A stretch of DNA of 64,000 nucleotides from Prorocentrum cordatum (taxonomy: Eukaryota), in contig CAUYUJ010000023.1 of NCBI GenBank assembly GCA_963575745.1, positions 1 to 64,000 on the forward strand, in the 5' to 3' direction. Each line of letters starts with the position of its first letter. Position 1 is the stretch's first letter. Position numbers and translations under genes: made by a program. The notes beneath the pieces were generated by a model. The model ran no database searches, was not told the origin of the DNA, and was given only the letters and a program-made list of their open reading frames with translations. Of the stretch, positions 480 to 64,000 are shown piece by piece.

Positions 480-877
480 TACCTCGTAGAGCTCTTCGTT
501 ATCGATGAGCTAGAGGAATTCCGGCGCGGGTGGAGCTAGTTGACCGACCCGGCCAGAAAGGACAAAGTGGTAACTTTTGGGTGGTTTTGCAATTTTTTGA
601 AAGATATTTGACCATTCATTTTGAGAAAGCAGATTTTTACTCCGAGCATTGGCATATAAACTTTGTTCCCTGAGCAGCTCAGCTCTCTAGAGCAATTTTC
701 AGTTCCAGTTCACTTGGAGCAACCGACCACATGTTGAATCCGAAAAAATCTCAAGTTGAAGATTTATAGAAACACCCAAAGAAGCTCTTCGCTTTCATCC
801 TGAGCTGCCTCGCGGATGCAATGAGCTCTACGAGGTTCCCGGCGGTGACCAGGTTGACGGTTCACCGCCGGCGCCAG
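480..877 (+). mobile_element. Intact family A element (~400 bp)
   Basis: Starts TACCTCGTAGAGCTC and ends GAGCTCTACGAGGTTCCCGGCGGTGACCAGGTTGACGGTTCACCGCCGGCGCCAG. Head-to-tail with neighbouring A copies at 479/480 and 877/878. Confidence 0.85.
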
Positions 878-1219
878 TACCTCGTGGAGCTCTTCGGCAT
901 CGATGAGCTAGAGGAATTCCGGCGCGGGGTGAGCTAGTACCTCGTAGAGCTCTTCGTTATCGATGAGCTAGAGGAATTCCGGCGCGGGGTGGAGCTAGTA
1001 ACTCGTAACTCGCAGAGCTTCCCTTAGCTAGTTATAGCTGGAAGCTAAGAGTAACTCGTAGAGCTTCCCTAAGCTAGTTATAGCTGGAAGCTAAGAGTAA
1101 TTCCGGCGCGCCGGAGAGCTAGTTGGCTCGAAAAAAAAGAACTGAACTTTTCACAACTTTTGGTCGGTTGAAAATTATGTTCTCGAAATTTGACCATTCG
1201 TACCTCGTTAGAGCTCTAG

Positions 1220-1618
1220 TACCTCGTAGAGCTCTTTGTTATCGATGAGCTAGAGGAATTCCGGCGCGGGGTGGAGCTAGTTGGTCCACCCGGCAGAGGC
1301 GGACAATGTGATAACTTTTGGGTGGTTTTGTAATTTTTTGAAAGATATTTGACAATTCATTTTGAGAAAGCAGATTTTTACTCCGAGCATTGAGATATAA
1401 ACTTCGTTCCCTGAGCAGCTCAGCTCTCTAGAGTGATTTTCAGTACCAGTTCACTTGGAGCAACCGACTTCATGTTGACTCCGAAAATTATCAACTTGAT
1501 TTTTTCTGTAGAAAAGCTCCCAGAAGCTTCCGCTTCGATGCTGAGCTTGCTCATGGATTCAAGGAGCTCTACGAGGTTCCCGGCGGTGACCAGGTTGACG
1601 GTTCACCGCCGGCGCCAG
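1220..1618 (+). mobile_element. Intact family A element inserted in a family B element
   Basis: Removing it restores GAGCTCTAG|TATTTTTTCCCGTG, seen uninterrupted in many B copies (e.g. ~3285, ~5645). Confidence 0.85.
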
Positions 1619-1724
1619 TATTTTTTCCCGTGATATTCGATCTTATTCCCGCTCGCCATCTTGATCTCAGCTCGATCGGGTAACTTTGAAGGCCAAAAAG
1701 CACACTGGCGGGATCGGCCGTTTC

Positions 1725-2800
1725 GAGTCATCTTGATACACGCTGTCGGTATTTTGTACTTAACTCGAGCTTGAGGACAGCTACAGAGCTGGTAAGCACA
1801 GCTATCGCACTCAGAATCATCAGGCGCGTTCGCCTGTTGAATCCAGAGGTCTGAACTCGGTCTGCCAGCCGAGCTAGGTCCGCAAACCTATTGGTATTAT
1901 TCGAGTCAACTTGATACGCGTTGTCGGTATTTTCTACTTTACTTGAGCTGTAGGGTAGCTACAGTGCTCGTAAGCACACCTATCGCACTCAGAATGATCA
2001 GGCGCGTTTGTCCCTCGAATCCATAGGTCTGAACTCGGTCTACTAGCCGAGCTAGGTTTGCAAACCTATTCGTATTATTCGAGTCAACTTGATACGCTTT
2101 GTCGGTATTTTCTATTTAACTCGAGCTTTAGGGAGCTACAGTGCTGGTAAGCACACTTATCGCACTCAAAATCATTAGGCGCGTTCGCCTGTCCAATCGA
2201 TAGGTCTGACCTCGGTCTGCTAGCCGAGCTAGGTCCGCAAACCTATTCGTACTATTCGAGTCAACTTGATACGCGTGGTGGGTATTTTATACTTAATTCG
2301 AGCTCCAGGGCAGCTACAGTGCTGGTAAGCACACTATCGCACTCAGAATCATCAGGTGCGTTCGCCTCTTGACTCCAGAGGTCCGAACTCTGTCTGCTAG
2401 CCGAGCTAGGTCTGCAAATCTATTCGTATTATTCGAGTCATCTTGACAAACGATCTCGGTATTTTCTGTACTTAACTCGAGCTGTAGGCAGCTACAGAGC
2501 CTACAGTCACAGAAATCGATTGAGAATCATCGGGCGCGTTTGTCTGTTGTATCGAGAGCTCTGAACTCGGCCTGCTGCCCGAGCTAGGCCGCGAAACTAT
2601 TCGCATTGTCCGAATCATCGTGAAAAGTGCTCTCCATTTTCTGCACTGAACTCGTGCTGGGTGAGGGCTGCAGTGCTGCGGGTCATAGAAATCGATTTGC
2701 ACATATCAGGCGCGTTCGTTGGTCGATTCGAGAGCTCAAAACTTGGTCTGCTGCTCGAAACAGGTTTGCGAAACTATTATATCATTCGATATGAGTTGGA
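1725..2800 (+). repeat. 178-bp tandem array inside a family B element (~6 units)
   Basis: Repeating unit CTTGATACGCGTTGTCGGTATTTT...AAACCTATTCGTATTATTCGAGTCAA. Confidence 0.85.
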
Positions 2801-23543: not shown

Positions 23544-23602
23544 TGGCTCAAGGCTCAAGGCTCAAGGGTCTCAAGGGTCTCAAGGGTCTCAAGGGTCTCG
23601 AG
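23544..23602 (+). repeat. Spliced-leader-like tandem repeats at the LINE 5' end
   Basis: TGGCTCAAG-GCTCAAG-GCTCAAG-(GGTCTCAAG)3-GGTCTCGAG. The dinoflagellate spliced leader ends TTTTGGCTCAAG. Confidence 0.6.
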
Positions 23603-23775
23603 ACGTCAGGGTTCGACGTCGAACAGGGCCCACGTCAGGGCGCACACACAGGCTTGCCTCAAGCCCCCCTCTCGTGCGGTGCGTGTTTGACGTATCGCGG
23701 GGGCTGTGTTCACATTGAATCCTCGCTCTCGTCCTTGATATCAAGATATCGTGGGGATCGCAGGAAGATCAGGAT

Positions 23776-25272
23776 TTGTCTGGATTTTACAAAAGACCAC
23801 TGTGGGCGGTTGGATTGAAAACGGACTCGCAGGGAGCATATATTATACCGTCAGAAGACGATCAGAGTGAATATTTCACGTCAGCTGACTTTGGTGTGGA
23901 TAGTGACCCACATCCGTGTGATTGGTTGAAAGACACATCAGCTACTGTGCCGCGATTAACGACGCAGGAGAAGAGGGAAGATCAGATAGCACTTGAGTTG
24001 GAAATTTCCCCACCAGAGGCATTTGTTCAGCAGGAGGCGTACGATTTCAAGAAGATTGGGCAATCAGATAGATATCAGGCTGCACTTCACACATTGCGTA
24101 CAGTCAAAGAGAGGAATAAACGACGTCCGTCAGCAATCATGGCGGATGACAAAGCAGAAGATAGCAAAATGGGAGGGAATGCGAGTAGTGAATGGTTGAG
24201 AGAGGTGAGGGCGAAAGGGGAGGGCAAAGGCTCCAGTGCTTCGAGTGGTCTGGCCGCGGCTTCCAGTGCTGCTGTCCAGGCGCCTCATTTAGCTACAGCC
24301 CAAGTCCCCAATGCTACGAGTGGTCTGGCCGTGGCCCAAAGTGCTGCTGTCCAGGCGCCTCAACCAGCTACAATGACGCCCGAGGAAATGTTCAGACAGA
24401 TTTTGAAAGGCCAGAGTGAAGTAACTGCGACGGTTAGTGAGTTCAAAACATCGGTTGCAGCTGATTTACATGTCATGGAGGAGAAGATTGATAGAACAAC
24501 GTCAGATGTCAAAACGTTATCGGAGCAAATGAAACAGGCCCAAGCTGACATTCAGAATCTGAAAAATGGAGACGCTCAATCTTGCGCAAGCGGTTCGACT
24601 AGATACGGATCAGGTGACGCGGGCAGTGGTGCAGGGCATAATTCGAACTGGGTACCATCATATATTGAGTTCAAAGGATGGATATCACGTGAGGGTTGGA
24701 AGAATAGAGAGATAAAACAAAGGGAGGCCATGAAACAACAGGTGCTGACCGACAACATAACGAAATTATTGGGATTGGCATCGCTGGACGCAACACATAA
24801 TGCTGCTTTTGATCATGCGAGAACTGCGGGGGAGAATACTGGCAGGTACTGGCCATACACACGGGGGCGGATCTATTTCAAAAAGGGGGCGGCAGTGGAT
24901 ATCATATGGCAGGTTCGGAATTGTTTCGACAGCGAATACAAGAGAGGAAACACTGACCTCCCACCGAATGTAAAGTTTCATGTTGAATGCGCGCCATGGA
25001 GAACACCCCATGTCCAACAGGTTGGTAAGTTCCAGAGTTGCTTTGCGGAAGTGAAGAAAACGACGGGGACCATGTGCAAGGGGGAGCCAGGGCCGCCAAA
25101 ATCATACATATGGTTTACACAAAACCCACAGGCAGATCCAGACACAAGAGTACTGATTGCTGAGTGGGGTGTACACAGCGGGTGGGCGCTACACACTAAT
25201 AATCTGAGGAGGGTGGAGCCTGAGGTGGATCAAGAGGGGTTACTCACGAAGCTCAGACAGACGAACAATTGA
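23776..25272 (+). CDS. LINE ORF1 protein (coiled coil plus probable RRM-like region); first in-frame ATG at 24139
   Basis: Long ORF upstream of APE-RT. Heptad segment VSEFKTSVAADLHVMEEKIDRTTSDVKTLSEQMKQAQADIQNLK followed by WVPSYIEFKGW. Contains a 75-bp internal duplication. Confidence 0.7.
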   Translation: MSGFYKRPLWAVGLKTDSQGAYIIPSEDDQSEYFTSADFGVDSDPHPCDWLKDTSATVPRLTTQEKREDQIALELEISPPEAFVQQEAYDFKKIGQSDRYQAALHTLRTVKERNKRRPSAIMADDKAEDSKMGGNASSEWLREVRAKGEGKGSSASSGLAAASSAAVQAPHLATAQVPNATSGLAVAQSAAVQAPQPATMTPEEMFRQILKGQSEVTATVSEFKTSVAADLHVMEEKIDRTTSDVKTLSEQMKQAQADIQNLKNGDAQSCASGSTRYGSGDAGSGAGHNSNWVPSYIEFKGWISREGWKNREIKQREAMKQQVLTDNITKLLGLASLDATHNAAFDHARTAGENTGRYWPYTRGRIYFKKGAAVDIIWQVRNCFDSEYKRGNTDLPPNVKFHVECAPWRTPHVQQVGKFQSCFAEVKKTTGTMCKGEPGPPKSYIWFTQNPQADPDTRVLIAEWGVHSGWALHTNNLRRVEPEVDQEGLLTKLRQTNN

Positions 25273-26991
25273 CGGTGCCAGTCTGCCACTCAGCTCGCGG
25301 TGGCAACTTGGAATGTCAACATGAGGAATAGCGAGCTTTTGCCAGCAATGCTGGAGTTTTGTCATTATGATGTGCTATGCTTGCAGGAGTGTCAGTACAT
25401 GTCATCGGCAGCATTTGAAGCATGTGGGTGGCAGGTGCGTTTTAGTGTGTGCCGACGAGCTGCTGTGGCCTTCAGGGGCCCATGGGCGGCGACTATTTCG
25501 GACAGTAAGTGCGGTGAGAGGTTTGCTGTTGTACAATTTGCATCTGTGGTCGTGTCCTCAGTGTACCTACCCACAGTGCAGCGGGGAGATGATAGGCTCG
25601 ATGAATATTGTGACGTTCTAGCTAAGCTGTGTGCATGCATGCAACTATGTAGCGAGCAATACCAGGGGTCCAAAGTATTGCAGTTTGTGGGGACAGATGC
25701 GCAGACGGAGCTGGAACCAAATCTCTTGGGGTTCACGGGAGAAGGATTGGAGGAGGTGTGGATGAGGTCGGAGGCGAAACATCATGAGGAGAGGAGGGAC
25801 ATGCTCGTGCGCTTTCTGAATCACTGGGGTCTTTGTGCAGCCAACACCTACGGCGTGCGACAAGTGACGCACAGGCCGTGGAGTACCAGCAGCTACTCCA
25901 GGGTGTTGGACTATGTATTTGTGCCGACACAATTTGCAGGTACCGAGGTGGCTCGGACCAACTGCTCATTTGAATGCACGGTGGAATTTGTGGATCCTAC
26001 ACAGGATCGAGCGTCACGCTACAGTGACCATGCGAAGGTAGGTGTGAGGATAAAACATGTGTCGGTGCGCAAGCCTTTCGTGCGACCCAGGCCCCCGAGC
26101 CTCATCAATTGGGCCCCGGAGGATTATGAGTCAGCGAATGTGTTCAGTACACTGGCCGATGTGCAGGTACAACAACATATGAACCAACAGGGTGACATAA
26201 ATATACAAACAGTTGGACAGATGCTTGTGAGTGCTGCGACGATGTGTAGGCATACAAAGGGCAGGGCGGATACTAAACCAATCAAAAAACCTGACCAACT
26301 CGTGGACGTTGAAGCGGAGTTAAGGAGGGGTGTCTTCGGTGAGCGTAGGAAACAATTACTGAGACGTCAAAAAACACTCCGAAGAAAGTTCAGGCGGGAA
26401 CAGCTCCTCAAGGACTCCACTGGCCTCAAACATGGACCCCGTAGGTGTATCAAGGAAATGCTGTGTGACGGGATACTGACAGAAAATAAACAAAGATGGG
26501 TGGAGGAGCTCAACAAACACGTACAACGGTCATATACATGTGATGGGGAGGGAGGAGCTGCAAAGAGAGAGTTGCATCGACTACGGACACAGTGGGAGGC
26601 AGAGGGCAGAACTACGAACAGGGTCATATCTATGGGTGTGTTGCTGGGGGCTCGAGCCCGATTGAAGGGCGGCACCGCAGCGGGCTCTGATGGCCTGGTG
26701 GCGGAGATTCTCAAAGCAATACCTTGGAATGCATTGAGATTGATACGACACTCATTTCAAGAAATACATGATCATAAAAAGTCCTCACCTGATTCGTGGA
26801 GGAAGTTGTGCGTGCAGCTGATTCCAAAAATGAGCATGATCCAAACATTTGGGGAGACTCGTGCAATATCGCTGTTGAGTGTTATGAGCAAGTGGTACAT
26901 GGCGTGCCTTCTTATTCTTGTGGAGGAACATGGACATATCAAAAATTGGCGACATATGGATTCCAGGAGAGTCACAAAGTTCATCACATGA
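25273..26991 (+). CDS. LINE ORF2 N-terminal part: apurinic-like endonuclease (APE) and RT N-terminus
   Basis: APE motifs VATWNV, DVLCLQE, SVYLP, GTDAQ, LDYVF, SDH. RT N-terminal motifs AAGSDGL, SWR..LIPK, RAISLLSV. Confidence 0.9.
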   Translation, partial: RCQSATQLAVATWNVNMRNSELLPAMLEFCHYDVLCLQECQYMSSAAFEACGWQVRFSVCRRAAVAFRGPWAATISDSKCGERFAVVQFASVVVSSVYLPTVQRGDDRLDEYCDVLAKLCACMQLCSEQYQGSKVLQFVGTDAQTELEPNLLGFTGEGLEEVWMRSEAKHHEERRDMLVRFLNHWGLCAANTYGVRQVTHRPWSTSSYSRVLDYVFVPTQFAGTEVARTNCSFECTVEFVDPTQDRASRYSDHAKVGVRIKHVSVRKPFVRPRPPSLINWAPEDYESANVFSTLADVQVQQHMNQQGDINIQTVGQMLVSAATMCRHTKGRADTKPIKKPDQLVDVEAELRRGVFGERRKQLLRRQKTLRRKFRREQLLKDSTGLKHGPRRCIKEMLCDGILTENKQRWVEELNKHVQRSYTCDGEGGAAKRELHRLRTQWEAEGRTTNRVISMGVLLGARARLKGGTAAGSDGLVAEILKAIPWNALRLIRHSFQEIHDHKKSSPDSWRKLCVQLIPKMSMIQTFGETRAISLLSVMSKWYMACLLILVEEHGHIKNWRHMDSRRVTKFIT

Positions 26992-29006
26992 CGGCCCCTT
27001 TGCTGCACATGACACGTCATGCCACTCTCTGGGGAAAAGGCGAGTCGGTACATATGGGAATAATGGATATAAAGAAAGCGTTTGATCATGTCACTGTCTC
27101 GATGGTGATCCGCGCGATGGAACACCTGAGATACCCAACAGATCTGATTATTGCAATTGTGGAGCCTATGATTGGAAACACAGCAGTTTTTGATTTCCAG
27201 GATGTGTGCAGCGAAGAGATCCTGTATAACAAGTCGGTGCGAACTGGAGGGAAAGAAGGCCCAGTACTCTTCAATATTGTGTTGGAGGCAATTTGGGCCT
27301 CTATTGCTGAATCATGGGAAGCATGTCATTATGGAGTACGATTGGAAGGCGAGGGGACACAACAGGCGCTGGTCAATCATTACATATGGGCTGACAATGT
27401 GGTGCTGCTGGCATCTTCGGCGAATCAGCTGAGGAATATGGTGAGTATGTTGACCGTGGCCCTCAGACGGGCTGGTATGGACTGGAAGATTGAGAGCCTG
27501 GAGTACCTTGTTTTTGGGCTGAGACAAAACCAGGGGCCACAATCATTAGTTTGCGAACTGGGAGATGATATTTGTGCACGGGCTGGAGACCCCAGCCTAC
27601 CCTATCAATTACGTGAGGCGGTGGTTTTGCCGAGGAAAAGCGAGTGCGACATACTGGGAGTTAAATTTGTGACGAACCCGAGGGATTTCCATGCAGTGCG
27701 GCACCGTATCGATGCAGGCAGGCGGTGTTTTTATGCTGATATTAAATTCTATCGATCACGCGCGGTGAGCATGAGGGAAAAATTCAGACGGTATCAGAGC
27801 AGAGTTCAACAGATCATATGCCATGGATGTGTGGGGTGGAGCTGTAATGAACATGTGCTGAACATATTGAGGAGCTTTGAAGGAAGATGTTTGAACACAA
27901 TGCGGGGATTACATAGAAAAGAGACGGAAACGTGGGAGGAGTTCAGGGATCGCAGTACCAACAGATCCAGGGAGATGTTCAAGGAGGGGGGGTTCAAAAC
28001 GTTGGTGGAGAAAGTTGTGAGGTACAACTTTGAATTCGCCGTGGAGGTATCCCAATATAAGTGCCACATGCCGTCCACTGTGTATAGCAAATCGTGGCAG
28101 CAGACGCTGCGCTCCATGTTGCACGTATCGGGGGAGTGGACGGTGCAGAGGGATGAAATGCTGGCGGCAGTAAGTCGGACGATGTCGAGAGAGGGAACGA
28201 GACGGCTCAGAGGCAGACCACGAATCGTGGCGAGCAGCTGGCATGCACCCTTTGAAAAATGGAGGTCGCTCCTGTGGCACGACACGTGCGTTGTACCGAC
28301 GGATTGGGAGGAGTTTGTGGAACACATATCACAGATACCCAAAGTGCAGGACATGTTTGTGAGGAGGAGTAAGGAGAGGAGGGTGGGAGGGTTTGCGAAG
28401 ACACCGACAGATGACGAGTTGGCCCGACGCCTTGCAGTTATTAATGAACAGACTACGATATGGGACCCTGGGATGGAAGGTATCGCTGTTGAAATGTGCG
28501 GAGACAGTAAAACGGTCGTACAATGGTTGAGGGGAGTCTGGGCCTGTGACAACAGTGGGTATGCCAAACGGATCGCCAGGATACAAAATATCATGTATGA
28601 CGTGAGTGAACAACACAACATACGATGCCCGACGTACGGTAGGGATTTCTGGAAACATATCTATAGGGAAGCCAATGCCTATGCTGATGAGCTGACACAC
28701 CATGCGAGAGAAGGAAACTGTTACAGAATTTACAAGCACGACTATATCAAACAGAACAGGACAAACATCAAATACATCAGAGGATGCTGGGATGGTGGAG
28801 TGAGCAGTGAGGGTGCTGCAGGAGGTCACTGGATCGAAGTTGCTCCAGAGAATGGCCCGTGGACACTCGTGAGCTCAGAAGCCTACATGTTTGATGTAGG
28901 AGCCACCGTGACGGAGGCAGAATTATCTGCTGCCGAGCGCCTGTGCACAGGTGTGGAGCACATTGTTAAAGAAATTTCCTCTGCAAAGCGGAGGAGGCGG
29001 ATTTAA
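26950..29006 (+). CDS. LINE ORF2 C-terminal part: reverse transcriptase plus circularly permuted RNase H, in the -1 frame relative to the APE part
   Basis: RT motifs YGF, DIKKAFDHV, VRTGGKEGPVLFN, WADN, ILGV. RNase H motifs GDSKTVV and HIYREANAYAD, followed by WDGG..G.AGG and TEAELSA. Confidence 0.9.
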
Positions 29007-29087
29007 CTGGCTCTAGCCCTTAGGCTTGGGCGCACGCGCCCTGTGTAGCCTGACCAAACACCAAACTCGGGGCTGCAGGGCTGGTAA

Positions 29088-32000
29088 CTGGGCGCCGGCG
29101 GTAAACCGTCAACCTTTCTTACCGCCGGGGGACTCGTAGAGCTTCCTGACAACATATAATGTCGAACAAAAATTACAGAAAGAATAGTTTTGCAGCCCAA
29201 GCAATTTCAGACCTCTCGATGCAACAGCCGAACCATCCCGATGTTTCTGGATTGTCTTCTGTGCGAGCTCGGTGGCTCTGCTACACCCCGAGTTACGTGC
29301 GTAAATCGATAGCACCTCTCAAGATGACTCGAAGAATACGAATAGAACCTAGCTCCAGTATCAGACCGAGTTCACACCTCTGTATACGACAGGCGGACGC
29401 GTCTGATGTCTATCGATGCCTGTCATTACGAGCTCCGCAGCTCCCCCTACAGCCCGAGTTAAGTGCAGGAAATCGACAGCACCTCTCAGGATGACTCGAA
29501 CAATACGAATAATTTCACGGACCTAGTTCGGGCAGCAGACAGAGTTCGGAGCTCTGGATTCGAAAGGCGGACGCGCCGAATGTCTCCGAATCGATTGCTG
29601 AAATTGCCAACACTGCAGTCCGCTTTCAGCCCGAGTTGCGTGCAGAGAACCGACAGCATCTCTCAAGATGACTCGAACAATACGAATAGTTTCGCGATTC
29701 TAGATCGGGCAGCGGACCGAGTTCAGAGCTCTGGATTCAACAGACAACGGCCACTGATGATTCTGAATCAGATTCTCTACGTATCAGCTCTGTAGCTGTC
29801 CTGTAGCTCGAGTTGAGTACAGCAAACCGAGAGCGTCTGTCAAGGTGATTTGAATAATACGAATAGGTTTGCGGACCTAACTCGGCTAGCAGACCGAGTT
29901 CAGACCTATCGGTTCAACAGGCGAACGCGCCTAATCATTCTACATCGATTAGCTGTGCTTACCAGCTCTGTAGCTGTCCTAAAGCTCGAGTTATGTTCAG
30001 AAAACCCTCATCGCGTGTCAAGATGACTCGAAACGGCCGATCCCGCCTGCCTGCTTTTTGGCAGTAAAAGGTACCCGATCGAGCTCAGATCAAGATGGCG
30101 AGCGGGAATAAGAGCGAATATCATGGAAAGAACATACTAGAGCTCAAACGAATTATTGAATTTCGAGAACAAAATTTTCAACCGACCAAAAGTCACAAAA
30201 AGGTCAGTCGAGATTTTTCTTGCCAACTAGCTCTCCAGCGCCCCGGAATTACTGGGCGCCGGCGGTAAACCGTCAACCTTGGTTACCGCCGGGAAACTCG
30301 TAGAGCTTCCCAGCTCGAAATAAGTTGAGAAAACCGACAGCAGCTACCACCATTTCGACTCATAGTGAATATTGTTTGACCTCTGAATGCGACAGGCGGA
30401 CGCGTCTTATGTCTGCGAATCGAATTCTTCTGTCATTGCCAGCCCTGCAGCCCACCTACAGCCCGAGTTAAGTGCAGAAAACCGAAAGCACCTCTCAGGA
30501 TGACTCGAAGAATACATTAGTTTCGCAGACCTGATTCGGGCAGCAGACCGAGTTCCGAGCTCTGGATTCGATAGGCGGACGCGCCTGATGTCTTCAAATC
30601 GATTCCTGTGACAACAAGCACTGTAGCCCCCCTCAGCGCGAGTTCAGAAAAGAAAACCGAGACCACTTATCAAGATGACTCGACCAATACGAATAGTTTC
30701 GCGATTCTAGATCGAGCAGCAGACCGAGTTCAGAGCTCTGGATTTGACAAAGAACGACCACTAATGATTCTGAATCGGCTTCTCTGGATATCAGCCCTGT
30801 AGCTGTCCTACAGCTCGAGTTAAGTACAGAAAACCGAGAGATCCTGTCAAGATGACTCGAAAAATACGAATAAGTTTCGACCTAGCTCGGCTAGTAGACC
30901 GAGTTCAGACCTCTCGATACAACAGGCGAACGCGCCTAATCATTCTACATCGATTAGCTGTGATTACCAGTTCTGTAGCTGTCCTAAAGCTCGAGTTATC
31001 TTCAGAAAACCCGGCCGAGGCGGACAATGTGACAACTTTTGGTCGGTTTTGCTAAGATTTGAAAGATATTTGACAATTTATTTTGAGAAAGCAGATTTTC
31101 ACTTCGAGCATTGACATATGAACTTTGTTCCCTGAGGAGCTCAGCCTTCTAGAGACATTTTCAGTACCAGTTCACTTGGAGGAACCGACTTCATGTTTAC
31201 TCCGAAAAATCTGAACTTGAAGTTTTTGTAGAAAAGCTCCCAGTTGCTCGAACTAGGTCCGCGAAACTATTCGTATCATTCGAGTAATCCTGAGAGGTGC
31301 TATCGCTTTACTGCACTTGAACACAGTTCGAAGATCAATCCGAGTTCAGACCTCCGAATGCGACAGGCAGACGCGTCTGATGTCTCGCAATCGACGCATG
31401 TGATTACCAGCCCTGCAGCCCCCCTACAGCCCGAGTTTAATGCGGAAAACCGACAGCATCTCTCAGGATGACTCGAATAATAGAATAGTTTCGCGGACCT
31501 AGTTCGAGCAGCAGGCCGAGTTCCGAGTATTGGGTTCGACGGACGGACGCGCCTGATGTGTCCGAATCGATTTCTGTGACCAGTAGTACTGCAGCCCCCT
31601 CCCAGCACGAGTTGAGTGCAGAAAATTCAGAGCACTTCTCAAGATGATTCGACCAATACGAATAGTTTCGCGAACCTAGCTTTGGCACCAGGCCGAGTTC
31701 AGATCTCTCGATTCGATAGACAAACGCGCCTGATGACCCCCAATCGATTTCTGTCACTATGAGCTCTGTAGCTGCCCTACAGCTCGAGTTAAGCACCGAA
31801 AACCGAGAGCGTCAGTCAAGATGACTCGAATAATAGAAATAGGTTTGCGGACCTAGCTCGGCTAGCAGACCGAGTTCAGACCTCTGGATTCAACAGGCGA
31901 ACGCGTCTGATGATTCTGAATGCGATAGGTGTGCTTACCAGCTCTTTAGCTGCCTTACAACTCGAGTTAAGAACAAAATACTGACAACGCGTATCAAGAT

Positions 32001-55893: not shown

Positions 55894-57105
55894 AAAAATA
55901 ATATGCGTCTGCCAGTAAAATTCTCGGATCCGTAGATGGGGGCATCTAGAGGTCTGAACTCGGTCTTATATTCGAGCTACGTCCGCAAAACTATTTGCAT
56001 CCTTCGAATCATTTGACAAGTCCTCTCGGTTTCCTGTACTTAACTGAAGATTTAGGAGAGCTACAGAGCTGATGCGCATATAATCCGATCCAGTATTACC
56101 CGACGCTTCCTTTTCTCGCTTCGAGAGTCTGAACTCGGTCTCATATGATACTCGAGCTAGGTCCACGAAGCGAAGATGCAAAATAAAAGAAACACGTATT
56201 TTTCGTGCTTTTTGTCTTCGCGCTTCAGAGCGATTTTTTCGTGCGCTCCGAGCAGCACCGCGCGAGAACAGAGCTCTACGAGGCTCCCGGCGTTTACCTG
56301 GTTGATGGTTTACCGCCGGATCCCAGTGATAACTTGGGGTCGGTTTTTCAATCTTTGTGCAGCATTTGAAAGTTCGTTTTAAGAACTGGTAGTGGGTTAT
56401 GCCGCGTCTGCCAGTTAAATTCTCAGGTCCGTAGCTGCAATATTACTATCAAAAGACTTGAGGGAACGGACTGTGTTTCGAGTCATGTTCGCACGCGTCG
56501 TCAGTTTTCTGTACTTAACTCGTGAGGAGAGCTACAGAGCTCATACTTAGAAACCTATTCGAAATCACCAGGCGCGTTCGTGTGTTGCATCCAGAGGTCT
56601 GAACTCGGTCATACTCGAGCCATTTCCGCAAAACTATTTGTATCCTTCGAGTCATTTTGACAAGTCCTCTCGGTTTCCTGTACTTAACTGAAGATTTAGG
56701 AGAGCTGCAGCTGGTACGCATATAAACCAATCCAGAATCATCCGGCGCGTCCTTTCCTTGCATTGAGAGTCTGAACTTGGTGTAGTACTCGAGCTAGGTG
56801 CACGAAACAAAGATGCAAAATGAAAAAACGTGTTTTTCGAGCGCCTTCATGCTTGCGAAAGCTTTTTTCGTGCGCCCCGAGCAGCGCCACGCGAGAACAC
56901 AGCTCTACGGGGCTCCCTGCGGTTACCTGGTTGACGGTTTACCGCCGGATCCCAGTATTCCCGGAGAGCTCTCTGAGAGCTAGAGGGTTTTAGAGTGGAA
57001 GCCGGACGCTGGGTGGTCCTGCCAGCAGCTCCTCCACGGCGGTTCAGGGTCCTCGCACTCGCCCGGGGTCGCGGCCCGTCTGGGGGCGCTTCCGGCACGC
57101 GTCCA

Positions 57106-60100
57106 ACCTGGAGTTGTGGATCCCAGCTGCTCCCACACATAACGGGGACGACAGTGTAAAAGGTCTGGGCGATGCCATCAGGAAGGCCAAGGCCAAATTG
57201 GAGAGCTCTTTCACTGACCGCATCGCGGCACCACTGGATGAGCAGTTTTCGTGGGCGAAGCTTGGGGCCGCCCTCTCGGACAGCATCCAGGCGCTGGTCG
57301 ACGACCCACTCATGGGCATCCTGCTGTACACCATCTCCGGACTATACCCTCACCAATGGCAAATGGGGGCCGCGCCCAGGCAACCAGGCAGTCTAGACAG
57401 GAAAACATGGAGCCACCTGGGTCACTGCCTTGACGTGGAAGTTGGGATCGACGCGAGCAACCTCGTGTACAAACTCACGTGGGCGGCCATTGTCTGGTTC
57501 CTCGGGCTCGGCACGCCATGGAACGACAAGCAGTTTGGCGTCGCGTATGAATCTCTCCCACCACTACCCCACATGGTGGGCTCCAACCGGGCCCCCAAGA
57601 GGAAAAGTCACTGCGCCCCCCGAGACACGCTCCAGCAGTTTCCAGCGGCATGGAGCACTACTACCTGCAGGTGTCGTCGGCACAGGGTGCATCCAGGGAT
57701 GGAGAATCTGAACGCCTTGCTCAATCCCGAGGGGATGAACGCAGAGCTCACAGGCACGCTTATCGGTGCTAGCGGACAGCCGCTTTCCCCCACGCACTCA
57801 GGGTACTACTTGTGGTCATGATGCTGCAGTTGCGTGAGCCCCGTGCCACGCTATGGCCCATCCCAAACCCCGAGGTCACTGGGGACATTTTCGAAGCAAT
57901 AATGGGCCTCTGCCCCCCGTGGCAGGAAGCACACAAAGAGTTCCGGACGCAGTTCGCCACGACGTGGGGCTGCCAGCTGGTGGACCTCGAGAATTTCCAC
58001 ACCAAGCTTGCCAAGGTCATACGTCATACGAGTATCCTGGCCACTTACGCCCACCACCACGAGATTGCTGGCAGGCACGGCTGTTCGAAGACGTGGGCGG
58101 GGATGGAGACGCACGAATTCACTTCGAAGCCCCCCTGCGCGTACTAAAAGACATTGTGCAGCCAGCTGACGTGAACCGGTTGCAAGACGGAGAGTGCTCC
58201 ATCTGCCTGCTTCACACTGCGCTGGCAGGGTCAGAGATCGGGCTGGGATGCCCGCGAACCATGGAGGACTTGCAGTACATAGGCGGAGGAAAGGCCATCT
58301 CCAACCACCGCCTCGACGAAGACATCCCCGCCTCACCCGCCCCAGGTACTGCGATGTCTCCCCCCGTCGTGCACGATGGGCGCTTCAGCAGGCTACAGAA
58401 GGAGGCCACTTACAACTGCGACGGATGCCACAGCGTGGGGCTCCACGGTTCTGCAGCCACCTGGGAAGACGATTGCACCCAGGAGCTACTCCCCCAGAAC
58501 CGCCTGCAGGCGCACACGAAGGGGAAAAATGGCAGATGGCTCTGCGAACGCGGTTGGGTCGCCTCATTGGAGAAGAAAGGCATTCCCCTCCCCGAGCCTG
58601 ACCCCTCGGAGCGCATCAGCAAGAAGTCCATGCAATGGCTACTGCAGGAGCATAAGCGCAGGCTACTGGACAACCGGGAGCAGAAGAGGGCGAGGGCCCT
58701 CCCATCCCTGGACAGGCTCCCACTTGGGTTGCAGGAACCAAAGGACACTGCAGCCACGGTCTCCCTCAAGGGGCTCCTACTTCGTACGCCGCGCCACTAC
58801 CGCCCCACCGGCGTAGGCACCACGCTTCCACCGCAAAGGCTATCAGACGGCAGGTTCGGTGCAGAGGCGCACCGTAGCAAATGCTACTCGGCCAAGTGCG
58901 AGTTTTGTCCCCCGCACTCCCCATGTCTCGAATGGCCTGCAGGCGCACCCGCCCTGGGGTGCTTCATCTGGCGCCCTGGAGAAGGCGCCGAGTGCAGTGA
59001 CCGCACAGGCCTCCCAGAGTGGGAAGCAATGCCATCGTTGTGGATCAAAAGACAGTGGGACGCCAGCTGGGCCTGCAGGAGATGCTTGGTGCACATCTGG
59101 GACATCGCACCCAGCACACTCAACAAGGTGCTGGACTCATGCTCGAAAGAGATGTATCCCCCCAGCCCCGTCATGGCGGCGACTAGTGAAGGCACTGAGG
59201 ACTGGGACATCTACGACATGACAGCACACCTCTCTCCTGTCAGCCCAGCTACAAACCAGGGCTCCACCGCGGGCGCCCCCCCCGGGCTCGGATCGCGGTC
59301 AGTGAGGATCCCCAATGCCAGTGCTACATTCTGGTGCGCCCTGCCTGCACTCCCACCACCCAGCGCGCCCCAGCTCCCCACGTACACGACCCTCCGCTTG
59401 GAGGGGGAGCAGTCGGGCAGCCCAGTCCGCAAACTTGTTAAGTTTCTGCTGGAATGGAACCGCGAGGTCTACATCCGATGGTCGACTTTCGGGGGGGAAA
59501 GGAACAGAGACAAAGTGGGTGAAGACAGCGATGAATCGGAATGGTCACACTACCAGCTGTTGCGCTTCCTGGACTCCATCTACGGGGACCAGATCCCCAA
59601 GAATGGACATCCCCCACTCATCCCGTGGGGCGGACAGAGAGCTGCCGCAGCCAATGCCATCACGCAGCTGGTTGGGAGGAATGAGAAGTTCCAGGAGGCC
59701 TGGCGCTCCTTCTCCGACGCGCTCAGTAGCCAAAGAGGACAATGCCCACGGCGGCAGCCGTTGGACACGCTGCACCGTTTCTTATCCCTGAGGAAGGACG
59801 ATCTCGCAGGGGGAACGCTGGAGTTCCTCGCCGGCGAACGCAACGCCGGGGGCAGCACCGGCACGGGAGACCACTCCCCCGCCGCCGTTTGGCGCAGGCG
59901 CCCACCAGCCTCGGACGGCCGCACCCCTGGCGATGGCCTCCGCCAGCAGCCCCCGGGAGCCACAAAGGCGGGCCAGGAGATACAGGAGGAACCATCCCCG
60001 GACAGGGACGCCCACGGTCATGGCGACAACCCATTCGGGGTAGACTGGGATGAGGACAATCCACCAGACAGGACCGTCTCCATGGTCGGCAGTCCCGCGC

Positions 60101-61287
60101 AGCAGGCCGAGGAAATCGAAGCCCACGGCCCCAGCGACAGAGATGGTTCCCACAGGCGGACAGCGCTGTGGACATACCCCCCTGCGAAGGAGGAAGCGGC
60201 CACCTGGGCGCCGTGCGCAACGGCCCGCCCCTGGGCGGACATGGAAAAAGTCCGTGACAACAGGGGCCTGGGAGGGACAGGGAGCAAGCCAGACTGCCGT
60301 CGGGAGTCTATCCCTGAGCTCGCCGCGTCTGTGCGCGAGACCCGCCCGGCGCCCAGCCCCGGGCAGGACAGCAGCCCTGATAGGCGGCCTCGCCCACAGG
60401 CAGACCCACTCCCACCTCCGCGTCAAGACGACCCCCTGGGAGGGCTTCCCATGTACATGAGGTCCATCGACGAGGCCGACATCCAGAGAGACGAGCCAGC
60501 CCAAGAGAAGGTCACCGGACTGCAGAAGACGCTCGGAGGCGCACTCAACGGGGTGTGGACAGCATGGGTCCGCAGGGCAGGCAGCCTGCAAGGTCTACCT
60601 TGGGTCCGCATCCATTCGGACCCCAAGAGGAACACAACGCAGCTTTGCGAAGAATTCCTGCGGGCGTCGGAAGCAGCGGGATACGACGCCTACAAGATGG
60701 TAAGGGACCACCGGCTCCGAGTGGAATGGCAAAAGGTCACTGAGAAGTACCGTGGCCTACTACAGCGCAGCGCAAGGACCAGCACACCCAAGGGGCAAGA
60801 TAGCGAGGGCCGCCCATGCCCTTGGGCCGCCAGCAGCAGGACTGTGCCCACCCCTCCGGCCCCGCCCGACAGGACAAGCTACTGCGAGCAGGCCCCGTCC
60901 TCCAGCACACGCATCGGGGCTGAGCAGCAACGCCCGTGCAGCAAGCCCAGAGCTGACACTTGCCTCGCCAGCGTGCACCGACTACAGGGATACCGCCTGG
61001 TCGAGGGCATCCAGCTCTGGAGCCCCATGGCGCTCAAGGCCGCGCTGGGAAGGATGGGGCCGCCAGGAGAGTTCATGGAGAGGCGCTGAGTGGGGGGGCA
61101 GGGAAAAGAGGACCGCTCCGAAAAGTGACGAGCAGTACGCCGACAAGCGACAGCGAGGAAGGGCACTCGCACGCTGGTAGCCCGGCAACGGACCTGACAG
61201 GGGCCCCCTGCCCAGGGCAGGGCCGACGCAGCCCAGAGCCCCCAAGGCGCACGGCCTAGGGCTCCCTTGGACAGCGTGTGACCCCCT
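57106..61287 (+). mobile_element. Unclassified GC-rich insert with a long frameshifted reading frame
   Basis: Begins ACCTGGAGTTGTGG inside the palindrome of a C element (GCGTCCA|). Unique, apparently intronless sequence. The host does not resume on the right. Confidence 0.5.
57114..61089 (+). pseudogene. Probable single ~1300-codon ORF broken by frameshifts near 57815 and 58132; unknown product with a possible RNase III-like motif, Cys clusters and repeated helical modules
   Basis: Overlapping ORFs 57114-57821, 57812-58147 and 57853-61089 in successive -1 frames. The last is 1078 codons. Confidence 0.5.
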
Positions 61288-61791
61288 TCTGTCAGAGATG
61301 ACATTGGGTTTCTGTAGCTCGAACTGCTGGTTAACTACCGAGCTGTTGGGCACAGCAAACGAAAGAAACGATCAGGAGCGCTACTCTGAAGTATCTAGAT
61401 GCTCGAACTCGGTGCGCTACCAGAGCTGGGTCAGAAAAACTATTCGTACTCTGCTAATATTTCAGAGATGATGATGAGTTTATGGATGCAGCTCGAGCTG
61501 CAGATGAGCTACAGGGATGTTTGCCACAGCGCTGGAAGGGAATGATTGGAAGCGCTGGTCTCCAGTATCTATGCCCGGTTTCGGCTTGCTTCCAGGGTTG
61601 GAGCCAGCAAACTTTTCGTACTCTAGTATTTTTTCAGAGCTGATGCCTTTCTTCATGTAGCTCGAGGCGCAGATGAGATTAGAGCTGTTCGGCACAGCAA
61701 TACGACAAATCATCGGGGGCGCTCGTGGCAAGTATCTGAATGTCAGAAATCGGTCTGCTACCAGAGTTGGAACCAAACAACTATCCGTACT

Positions 61792-62070
61792 CCTGCTCCT
61801 CGTCCTCTTCCTTCTCCTCCTTCTCCTCCTCCTCGTCCTTTTTCGTCTGCTTCATTTCCTCCTTCTGCTCCTTCTCTTCCCCCTTATCCTCATCTTCCTT
61901 CTCTTCATCATCATGATCGTCCCTCTTCTCCCCTCTCCACCCCTCCCTCTCCTGCTCGTCGTTCTCCTCTTCCTTCCCCCCCTCCTTCTCCTCCGCCTGC
62001 TCCTTTTTCTCCTCCGTCTCCTCTCGTCAGCTTCCTCCATCTCCTTCTGCTCCTCACTCCTTCTTCTCTT
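61792..62070. repeat. CT-rich low-complexity tract
   Basis: Almost pure pyrimidine on the + strand. Confidence 0.9.
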
Positions 62071-62162
62071 CCACGTCCCCCTCCATGAGACCGCGCCCTC
62101 GCGCGCGCGGAATGCGAGATTGCCGCGCCCACGTCCCACGAGGAAGCTCTACGAGTTCTCCG

Positions 62163-62290
62163 TTGCCTATGCCTCAGTGGCTCGGCAGTGTGATGATAAG
62201 AGATGCCCTCTCTAGCTACCCTGTGCTCCGTTTGGGAGTCTTAGGGCTCAGCTGTCACAGCTGTCCGCGCCCTGACTCAAACTCAAAAAC
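62163..62290 (+). mobile_element. Severely 5'-truncated LINE 3' end inserted in a B-type terminal hairpin
   Basis: Separates GGAAGCTCTACGAGTTCTCCG from AGGTTGACGGTTTACCGCCGG. Ends CCCTGACTCAAACTCAAAAAC, resembling the CCTGACCAAACACCAAAC tail at ~29050. Confidence 0.5.
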
Positions 62291-62984
62291 AGAGGTTGAC
62301 GGTTTACCGCCGGCTCCAAGTCTGAACCCAGCCTGCAATCATAGCCGCACTAAAAACTTTCCGGACTGTAAATGTCCCACGGGATGTTTCCTCAATTGAA
62401 TCGAGCCACAGGCCAAATGCCGAGCTGAGATGCAGACGGATCGAGAAGAATTGCTCAAAAGCACGAGTCTAAAGTATCTAGACGCCTGATATTGGTCTAC
62501 GACCATAGCTGCGACTCAATAATCATTTGCGTTCCTTCGTTTCATGACAGACGGTTGATCCCCGTTGAATTCGAAGCATAGGCAAACTAGAGAACTGGGG
62601 CTCAACAAGAAATCATCAGACACAGTCGCCGACAGTTCGAGACGTCCGAGGTTGGTTTGCTTTCTGAGCTACAACTGAAGAGCTACTTGCACTCTGCAGT
62701 TTTTTTTTGTGAGTATGCCGTGCCCCATCGGAGCTGTTGGCAAGATGCCGATCATATGTACACCAATCGTCTGAACTGCTGGGCAGTGCAAGTTGAAATC
62801 ATTTAGATGGTGAGGCCAGTCTGCGATCATAACTGCGACTGAGATAGCAATGTTCTATTTATCGTGTGCGAGCTGCACGCGATCTATAGAGCTCGGACGC
62901 AGACAGTTCGAATGGACATGATCACGAGCACTAGTCCAGTATCGGGGCGAGCTCGAGCTGCGGACAAGCAGGAGCTGTGAAGTA

Positions 62985-63262
62985 ACTTCTCCTCCTCCTT
63001 CTTCGCCGCCTCTCCCCCCTCCTCCTCCTCCTCTTCCTCCTTCCTCTCCTTCTTCTCCCTCTCATCTCTTCCTCCATCTCCTTCTCCTGACCCTCCCCCC
63101 CCCGCTCCCCCTTCTCTTCTTCCTTTTCCTCCTCCTGTCCCCTGCCTCCTCCTTCTCCTCCTCTCCTGCGTCTCCTCCTCCTCTTCCTCTTCCTTCTCCT
63201 CCTCCTCCTCCCCCTTCTCTTTCTCTTCCACCTTCTCCTCCTCTTTCTCTTGCTTCTCTTCC
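62985..63262. repeat. (CCT/CTT)n low-complexity tract
   Basis: Read directly from the sequence. Confidence 0.9.
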
Positions 63263-63384
63263 ATTTTTACCTAACAGCTTGTGCTGATAGGTTTCTAGTA
63301 GGGTCAAGAGAGAGCATCATGACACTCCAGGGGGGTCCGGGCGGAAGCCGGCAGAAACCGGGAGAATCCGGCGGAGCTCATTTT

Positions 63385-63691
63385 GTGCGTGCAGGTACGC
63401 ACGGGGGCCACCTCGGCGCCATCGGAGGTGCGTTCCGTGCGTGCAGGCACGCACGGGAGCCACCTCGGCGCCATCGGAGGTGCGTTCCGTGCGTGCAGGT
63501 ACGCACGGGAGCCACCTCGGCGCCATCGGAGGTGCGTTCCGTGCGTGCAGGTACGCACGGGAACCACCTCGGCGCCATCGGAGAAGCGTTCCGTGCGCGC
63601 AGGTACGCACGGGAGCCACCTCGGCGCCATCGGAGGTGAGTTCCGTGGGTGCAGGTACGCACGGGAGCCACCTCGGCGCCATCGGAGGTGC
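63385..63691. repeat. 52-bp minisatellite, ~6 copies
   Basis: CCTCGGCGCCATCGGAGG recurs at 63411, 63463 and 63515, and onward. Confidence 0.95.
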
Positions 63692-63955
63692 GGCTGAGGC
63701 TGAGGCAGGCTGAGGCTGAGGCTGAGGCTGAGGCTGATGCAGGCTGAGGCTGATGCAGGCTGAGGCCGCAGGAGTATTCGGGAGCGCAGCAGGCTGAGGC
63801 TGAGGCAGGCTGAGGCTGAGGCTGACGCTGATGCAGGCTGAGGCTGAGGCAGGCTGAGGCCGAAGGGGTATGCGGGAGCGCAGCAGGCTGAGACTGACGC
63901 AGGCTGAGGCTGAGACTGAGGCTGATGCAGGCTGGGGCTGAGGCAGGCTGAGCTG
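63692..63955. repeat. (GGCTGA)n-type degenerate microsatellite
   Basis: Read directly from the sequence. Confidence 0.9.
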
Positions 63956-64000
63956 GCTTGTCCTGTGGAGCTCCAGTGTCACAGAAAATGCATCTGTAGC

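Follow-up and report, generated by a model that had tools for sequence, protein, structure and literature searches.

Type II viral sites of stop-codon readthrough are defined by two hexamers, UGACGG and UGACUA; the stop-codon context runs from -3 to +9, and a UGA that is read through is mostly decoded as Arg, Cys or Trp (PMC13517186, in the portion of its text that is available). Segment 9 of Colorado tick fever virus has the sequence UGU UGA CGG UGU UGG, and the nsP3/nsP4 junction of Venezuelan equine encephalitis virus (VEEV) has CAA UGA CGG UUU. Stem-loops begin at +12 in these two viruses, and structure begins at +16 in Sindbis virus (PMC13517186). The window analysed here is a whole stretch of 64,000 nucleotides (nt) from Prorocentrum cordatum (NCBI GenBank assembly GCA_963575745.1, contig CAUYUJ010000023.1, positions 1 to 64,000 of the forward strand). 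It contains a copy of a long interspersed nuclear element (LINE), a non-LTR (long terminal repeat) retrotransposon. The first open reading frame (ORF1) of this LINE ends in a UGA followed directly by CGG; the second (ORF2) continues in the same frame. We lean towards programmed readthrough of this UGA, which would give an ORF1-ORF2 fusion protein at low frequency; this is probable rather than certain.

The junction resembles the type II viral sites in that it has UGACGG, shares the string UGACGGUG with Colorado tick fever virus, and has a polymerase part downstream and in frame; predicted structure begins at +15, compared with 12-16 nt in the viruses (PMC13517186). It differs in that the carrier is a cellular LINE and in that the site is known from sequence alone. 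Moloney murine leukaemia virus (MoMLV; PMC13517186) and Tca2, which has a gag-UGA-pol arrangement (PMC3956500, in its available text), also place a structural protein, one in-frame stop and the replicase in this order, and bypass of the stop sets the ratio of the products. Both belong to another class of element, and the LINE has no protease to split a fusion protein. The MoMLV signal is also different; it is of type III, with UAG-GGA and a pseudoknot (PMC13517186).

Among LINEs, human L1 and silkworm SART1 have a bicistronic RNA, and ORF2 protein is made at a low level from the RNA of ORF1 (PMC5972666, available portion). Unlike L1, in which a 63-nt spacer is followed by an ORF2 with its own AUG, and unlike SART1, in which stop and start overlap as UAAUG, the window has zero spacer, a shared frame and no AUG at the junction. 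The group 3 LINEs of Paramecium are, like the present one, APE-RT elements of an alveolate (AP-endonuclease, APE; reverse transcriptase, RT) whose ORF1 and ORF2 share a frame and are separated by the ORF1 stop; read-through has been proposed for these same-frame LINEs (PMC5405496, available portion). They differ in that their ORF1 ends in a zinc finger, which is not seen in ORF1 of the window. Readthrough in LINEs is not new in principle, since the idea is in print for these ciliate elements (PMC5405496). The literature searched contained no report of UGACGG, as a type II context, at the junction of ORF1 and ORF2 in a LINE; it did contain an ambiguous remark on Zorro3. In-frame stops between the ORFs are also said to occur in the ATLN LINEs of Arabidopsis and in trypanosome ingi, for which the literature searched gave no confirmation.

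The initial annotation had described the two ORFs as in frame and separated by a single UGA-CGG. The letters at 25264-25323 bear this out, and the stop-to-stop frames 23719..25272 and 25273..26991 are one shared frame. Its description of UGA-CGG as a leaky context also agrees with the definition of the type II hexamer (PMC13517186). TGACGG, at 25270-25275 in the window, is kept in L001 and L002, two metagenome contigs that were the only loci returned by one metagenome scan in which an ORF1 alignment was the query; no further DNA relatives were found in a genome-contig search or in a viral-contig search. ORF1 protein identity to the window is 61% for L001 and 63% for L002. The annotation had named two observations that would count against its reading, a sense codon in other copies and a spacer varying by other than multiples of three, and both checks favour the reading. 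Both contigs have TGA-CGG, and the only indel near the junction between the window and L002 is one of 3 nt in the ORF1 tail. L002 carries ORF1 and ORF2 in one frame with a single stop between them (frames 508..1500 and 1501..1818). In L001 a 53-nt deletion takes away the WN motif, the first endonuclease motif, and the contig is out of frame for that reason only.

The stop lies in a 14-nt block, AATTGACGGTGCCA, which is the longest invariant run in the 1828-column alignment of the window with L001 and L002. It is followed by runs of 12, 11 and 8, and 823 of the 1828 columns are invariant. From -3 to +11, the block is close to the -3 to +9 context of viral sites (PMC13517186). The protein beside the junction is among the most variable (LRQTNN against LNAPN; QSATQ against QNAAE), and the DNA block is still kept. 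In ORF1, 76-83% of synonymous sites differ between the window and the two contigs, which is saturation, and 20-26% of non-synonymous sites; in the first 77 codons of ORF2 the proportions of differing synonymous and non-synonymous sites (pS and pN) are 0.62 and 0.18. The saturated synonymous and low non-synonymous divergence means that the lineages have long been separated and are under purifying selection. We estimate that an in-frame layout has a chance of 1/3, and that UGA followed by CGG or CUA makes up about 1% of in-frame stops; the arrangement of the junction exceeds chance. Judged by comparison of the copies the case is good, and we favour the view that the in-frame UGA is an old trait of the LINE family, probably kept by selection. 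Across the whole window TGACGG occurs 63 times where 28 are expected; this excess reflects the satellite DNA around the LINE and has no bearing on the junction.

ORF2 is open right after the stop in the window and L002, and its APE motif begins 8 codons on. As the initial annotation pointed out, the motif LAVATWNV lies ahead of the first in-frame AUG of the window. The point is stronger still in L002, which has ACG at that place; its next in-frame AUG is only at +78, well within the endonuclease. Position 1 of the Pfam Exo_endo_phos profile falls on ORF2 residue 11, six residues ahead of the Met encoded at 25321. A profile of the clade, in which the consensus of ten members has SWN at positions 12-14, matches R2 proteins, L1 ORF2p (8c8j), exonuclease III and L1 endonuclease chains; a PDB sequence search with the APE part alone gave no match. 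Profile positions 5-148 align with residues 5-151 of human L1 endonuclease chains; by this alignment the WN-motif Asn corresponds to a residue of the L1 endonuclease, the Asn near position 14, that we take to be catalytic. Coordinates are collected in Table 1.

Table 1. Features of the LINE copy and of its ORF1-ORF2 junction, in window coordinates
Feature	Position	Strand	Remarks
LINE (non-LTR retrotransposon) copy	23546..29085	+	About 5.5 kb, inside 177-bp satellite; self-BLAST and Pfam
Three tandem GGCTCAAG units	23545-23566	+	5' end of LINE
CTCAAGGGT, 4.3 copies	to 23599	+	Follows the GGCTCAAG units; 5' end spans 23545..23599
ORF1	24139..25272	+	377 codons and UGA; sole in-frame ATG at 24139
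Invariant block AATTGACGGTGCCA	25267..25280	+	-3 to +11 around the stop; identical in window, L001 and L002
In-frame UGA ending ORF1	25270..25272	+	AAT before (25267-25269); CGG directly after (25273-25275)
Predicted 49-nt hairpin	25270..25318	+	Base includes the UGA; helices 25270-25274/25314-25318, 25278-25281/25308-25311, 25284-25290/25299-25305
ORF2 (APE, RT, RNase H-like)	25273..29006	+	In the frame of ORF1; frame broken in window copy
Spacer of 16 sense codons without AUG	25273..25320	+	Includes the first APE strand and the WN-motif Asn
LAVATWNV	25294-25317	+	First APE motif, upstream of first ATG
In-frame GUG in GCGGUGG	25300..25302	+	Also in L002; possible non-AUG start
First in-frame AUG of ORF2	25321..25323	+	+51 from the stop; ACG in L002
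RT active-site motif WADN	27387-27398	+	Replaces the usual Y/F-x-D-D; same in ten-member clade consensus

The read-through translation, 950 residues long with X at the stop, served as the query in a search for relatives among 1.84 billion representative proteins (E at most 0.001). There were 309 matches, and the figures given here are from the best 150 of them. All 20 of the ORF1-type proteins that reach query residues 361-376 end 1-14 residues further on, matching the tail of ORF1 in the window; P0003 ends in ...LNAPN, P0005 in ...LRGPN and P0078 in ...RLDNS. No protein spanning full ORF1 and full ORF2 is among these 150 matches. A word-index protein search with the same 950-residue query gave one match.

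Three short proteins cross the junction, all of them from one eukprot record. In P0080 the ORF1 tail is fused directly to VSTWN and about 22 codons are gone, the stop included; in P0006 a larger in-frame internal deletion joins ORF1 and ORF2. Derivatives with frame-keeping deletions near or across the junction seem to be common among the records seen, and ORF calling favours them. The third protein, P0111 (273 residues, 26% identity to the window, pairwise E 1e-15), passes from the end of ORF1 into the endonuclease without any break in the frame. Its own relatives include P0156, a protein from a JGI metagenome that is 74% identical to it, was found by a search with P0111, and ends in ...LQEVNRRQ. 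P0111 there reads ...LQEVNRWQWRSRR..., with Trp-Arg, and continues into the endonuclease. Placing the stop of P0156 opposite the second Trp of P0111 gives a distance of 14 residues to the endonuclease-motif Trp (13 in the window), and in both lineages the stop is followed by Arg. This alignment indicates that in the deep lineage, too, a stop separates ORF1 from an ORF2 in the same frame. Were that stop a UGA in P0156, the Trp of P0111 would be a one-letter change from it. Three more distant ORF2 proteins, P0002, P0116 and P0139, have their initial Met immediately ahead of the APE motif. Members of the wider clade thus commonly have a separate ORF2 that starts at an AUG of its own, which the family of the window lacks.

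Programmed readthrough is favoured because UGA-CGG is conserved and in frame and ORF2 lacks an AUG. Most ribosomes would halt at the UGA and yield ORF1 protein. A small share would accept a near-cognate tRNA (for Arg, Cys or Trp) at the UGA and continue, giving the ORF1-ORF2 fusion, and this route would set a low ratio of replicase to ORF1 protein in the manner of gag-pol. The signal would be the stop context AAU-UGA-CGG-UGC-CA, which contains the type II hexamer. When the UGA occupies the A site, both outer helices of the predicted hairpin would be open, and the inner stem at about +15 may help. Anatomy, conservation and frame are read directly from the copies; from them we infer that readthrough takes place, that its rate is low and that the fusion protein is active.

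The first 49-51 nt from the stop fold as one hairpin in both the window and L002. With the U of UGA as position 1, the helices lie at 1-5/45-49, 9-12/39-42 and 15-21/30-36. The minimum free energy in the window is -19.1 kcal/mol (z -2.0), which 9 of 200 shuffles match, and in L002 it is -23.1 kcal/mol (z -4.0), which none of 200 shuffles matches. Each of the 16 pairs forms in both sequences (32 of 32 cells); in five of them one side is changed and pairing is kept, and slid controls pair at 12-47%. L001 is without the 3' arm. This evidence for the hairpin is weak because there are only two sequences, because the structure was derived from the same two, and because its 3' arm is conserved as coding sequence. 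It is improbable that the hairpin is a switch that sets the amount of replicase, either by near-cognate decoding or by RNA conversion of UGA to UGG (Trp). If true, such a switch, with the UGA buried against the arm that encodes the WN motif, would be a type of control undescribed for any LINE.

Several points count against programmed readthrough. The junction is known at the DNA level from three copies, and L001 and L002 are close to each other, so that there is in effect one deep comparison. All three are dead copies, with damage in ORF2: a 1-nt deletion in the window, 53 nt in L001 and 2 nt in L002. No variant at 25270-25275 is found among 40 of 236 variant rows, and sense variants in other copies are possible. 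The hairpin, of 49 nt with an inner stem of 7-8 bp, is small beside the extended stem-loops of 68-177 nt tabulated for type II viral sites (PMC13517186). It is judged on the two sequences from which it was derived, no pair is changed on both sides between the window and L002, and its 3' arm encodes the conserved AVATWNV and is fixed by the protein in any case. An Rfam search over 25100-25600 gave no match at E up to 1. The initial annotation had suggested a stimulatory stem in the roughly 150 nt downstream; folding of the 151 nt that begin at the stop is no better than that of shuffled sequences (z +0.84), and only the 49-nt hairpin is seen. Its proposal of a fusion by readthrough therefore keeps the conserved in-frame TGA-CGG and the missing AUG, and loses the long stimulatory structure. 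Lastly, the missing AUG and the hairpin also fit reinitiation, and the P0111 lineage, in which a Met precedes the GSW motif by four residues, could reinitiate at an AUG.

Translation of L1 ORF2 is independent of its AUG. The alternative to readthrough that survives best is that ribosomes terminate at the UGA and then reinitiate independently of an AUG, or initiate at a non-AUG codon, within the next ten codons. A separate ORF2 protein would result, and the conserved block and the hairpin would serve to retain the post-termination ribosome. The GUG of Table 1, for example, is common to the window and L002, and the Met residues of P0002, P0116, P0139 and P0111 show that relatives can have an ORF2 start close to the motif. 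For mammalian L1, translation of ORF2 by an unconventional termination-reinitiation has been proposed; in SART1 the coupling requires structure downstream of the stop-restart site (PMC5972666). However, reinitiation needs neither a shared frame, nor UGA specifically, nor CGG after it, and all three are kept. The first in-frame AUG after the stop comes only at +51 in the window and at +78 in L002, and the junction shows no overlap of stop and start, whether UAAUG or AUGA. A start at the GUG would cut the first APE strand by two residues relative to the aligned relatives, and the GUG itself sits within the 3' arm of the inner stem. We regard reinitiation as possible but less likely than readthrough.

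It is very unlikely that the UGA is removed or redefined in some other way, by base editing to UGG within the hairpin or by reading of UGA as selenocysteine or Trp in the host. Nuclear RNA editing occurs in dinoflagellates, and the amber/W site of hepatitis delta virus is a parallel for base editing. The UGA is base-paired in the predicted hairpin, and P0111 has Trp where the 74% identical P0156 stops. However, these two proteins come from different copies, and a difference in DNA (TGG against a stop) is the simpler explanation; moreover, the 20 ORF1-type proteins among the best 150 of the 309 matches, called under standard codes, end at this place. That the stop is a nonsense mutation without meaning, private to one decayed copy of an element with a single ORF, is hardly credible: the window copy is dead anyway by its frameshift near 26940 and P0111 has a continuous ORF1-APE frame, but TGA and 11 further identical letters are kept in L001 and L002 across saturated synonymous divergence, and the same 20 of 20 ORF1 ends contradict it.

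Other copies of the LINE are many, dispersed and diverged. Contig pieces from four public runs of four studies (X1, X5, X6 and X7) were compared with 24600-27200; 15 to 478 pieces per run match, with likeness from at least 99% down to less than 90%. One joint is seen, a skip of 25191-25268 (78 nt) in one X5 contig at a depth of 2.96, which keeps both the TGA and the frame. An intron or spliced-leader acceptor that would remove the UGA was considered and rejected; the sole nearby AG (25280-25281) is absent in L002, and no joint spans the stop.

ORF2 has the layout of an APE-type LINE, an AP-endonuclease domain (PF03372, E 1.4e-5) followed by reverse transcriptase (PF00078, E 4.2e-14), and also an RNase H-like domain (PF13456, E 8.7e-6). 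Its frame shifts in the window copy near 26940, between 26793 and 26991, which the initial annotation had not noticed. The window has five A at 26941-26945. Most other copies have an extra A behind 26940 (depth 20.7 of 20.7 in X1, 230.3 of 258.8 in X5 and 76.3 of 146.2 in X7; X6 does not cover the place). The break is therefore private to the window copy or a slip of the assembly, and ORF2 of the family is one frame. An intron behind the break was rejected, since other copies carry one more A and no joint is seen there.

P0020, a predicted protein from elsewhere, matches ORF1 residues 1-70, starting at its own residue 1. No Pfam family scores above threshold in ORF1. The AlphaFold model (mean pLDDT 59.7) has a disordered N-terminus, a predicted coiled-coil helix at residues 81-144 and then beta-alpha units. 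Foldseek matches of the model to L1 ORF1p structures (2yko, 2ykq, 2ykp and 2ldy) have E-values of 6e-3 to 3e-2, none of them at or below 1e-3, and a wide VIA fold search with ORF1 matched coiled coils only; the likeness of the modelled ORF1 to human L1 ORF1p is weak. The Ala/Gln/Ser-rich head of ORF1 contains a 75-nt tandem duplication at 24233-24372 (1.9 copies, 84% alike).

The LINE is set in satellite DNA. Positions 1-23545 and 29086-56000 are mostly a 177-bp satellite, the orientation of which flips several times; likeness of the flanks to the satellite stops at about 23545 and restarts at about 29086 by self-BLAST. The LINE sits at an inversion point of the satellite. The two flanks are in opposite orientation, and a target-site duplication is therefore unreadable. 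No A tail is seen at the 3' end of the LINE ahead of the restart of the satellite. Just beyond this end, at 29095-29128, is a perfect 10-nt inverted repeat, CCGGCGGTAA / TTACCGCCGG, with a 14-nt loop. A self-search found no second copy of the LINE interior in the window. At the right end of the window (56000-64000) the G+C content rises to 0.55-0.63.

The 5' end of the LINE carries tandem repeats (Table 1), and L002 begins with ATTTTGGCTCAAG (L002 3-15). This string occurs in 29 papers; the eight of them that were considered are on dinoflagellates, and several of these are on the spliced leader or on retrogenes. It is the 3' part of the dinoflagellate spliced leader. The repeats at 23545..23599 look like relics of such leaders. 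The tandem GGCTCAAG units together with ATTTTGGCTCAAG in L002 suggest trans-splicing of the LINE RNA, with new copies arising from a processed RNA that holds both ORFs; the repetition of the relics suggests repeated rounds of copying. A eukprot record labelled as a green alga (Pyramimonas sp.) contains proteins, P0006-P0011, P0155 and others, that are 79-96% identical to the LINE. The relics point to a dinoflagellate, and the Pyramimonas label reflects either a problem of labelling or contamination or an element shared between the two.

It has long been a puzzle how the second gene on the bicistronic RNA of a LINE is translated, and the mechanism in human L1 is still termed unconventional. A UGACGG of viral type, in frame and with no AUG for ORF2, would make a non-LTR element a clean case, open to direct testing, of dosage control in the style of gag-pol. 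Little is known of how translation is controlled in dinoflagellates, where the LINE RNA seems to bear a spliced leader. Together with the report on Paramecium, the junction hints that expression of LINE replicases by readthrough may be widespread in alveolates.

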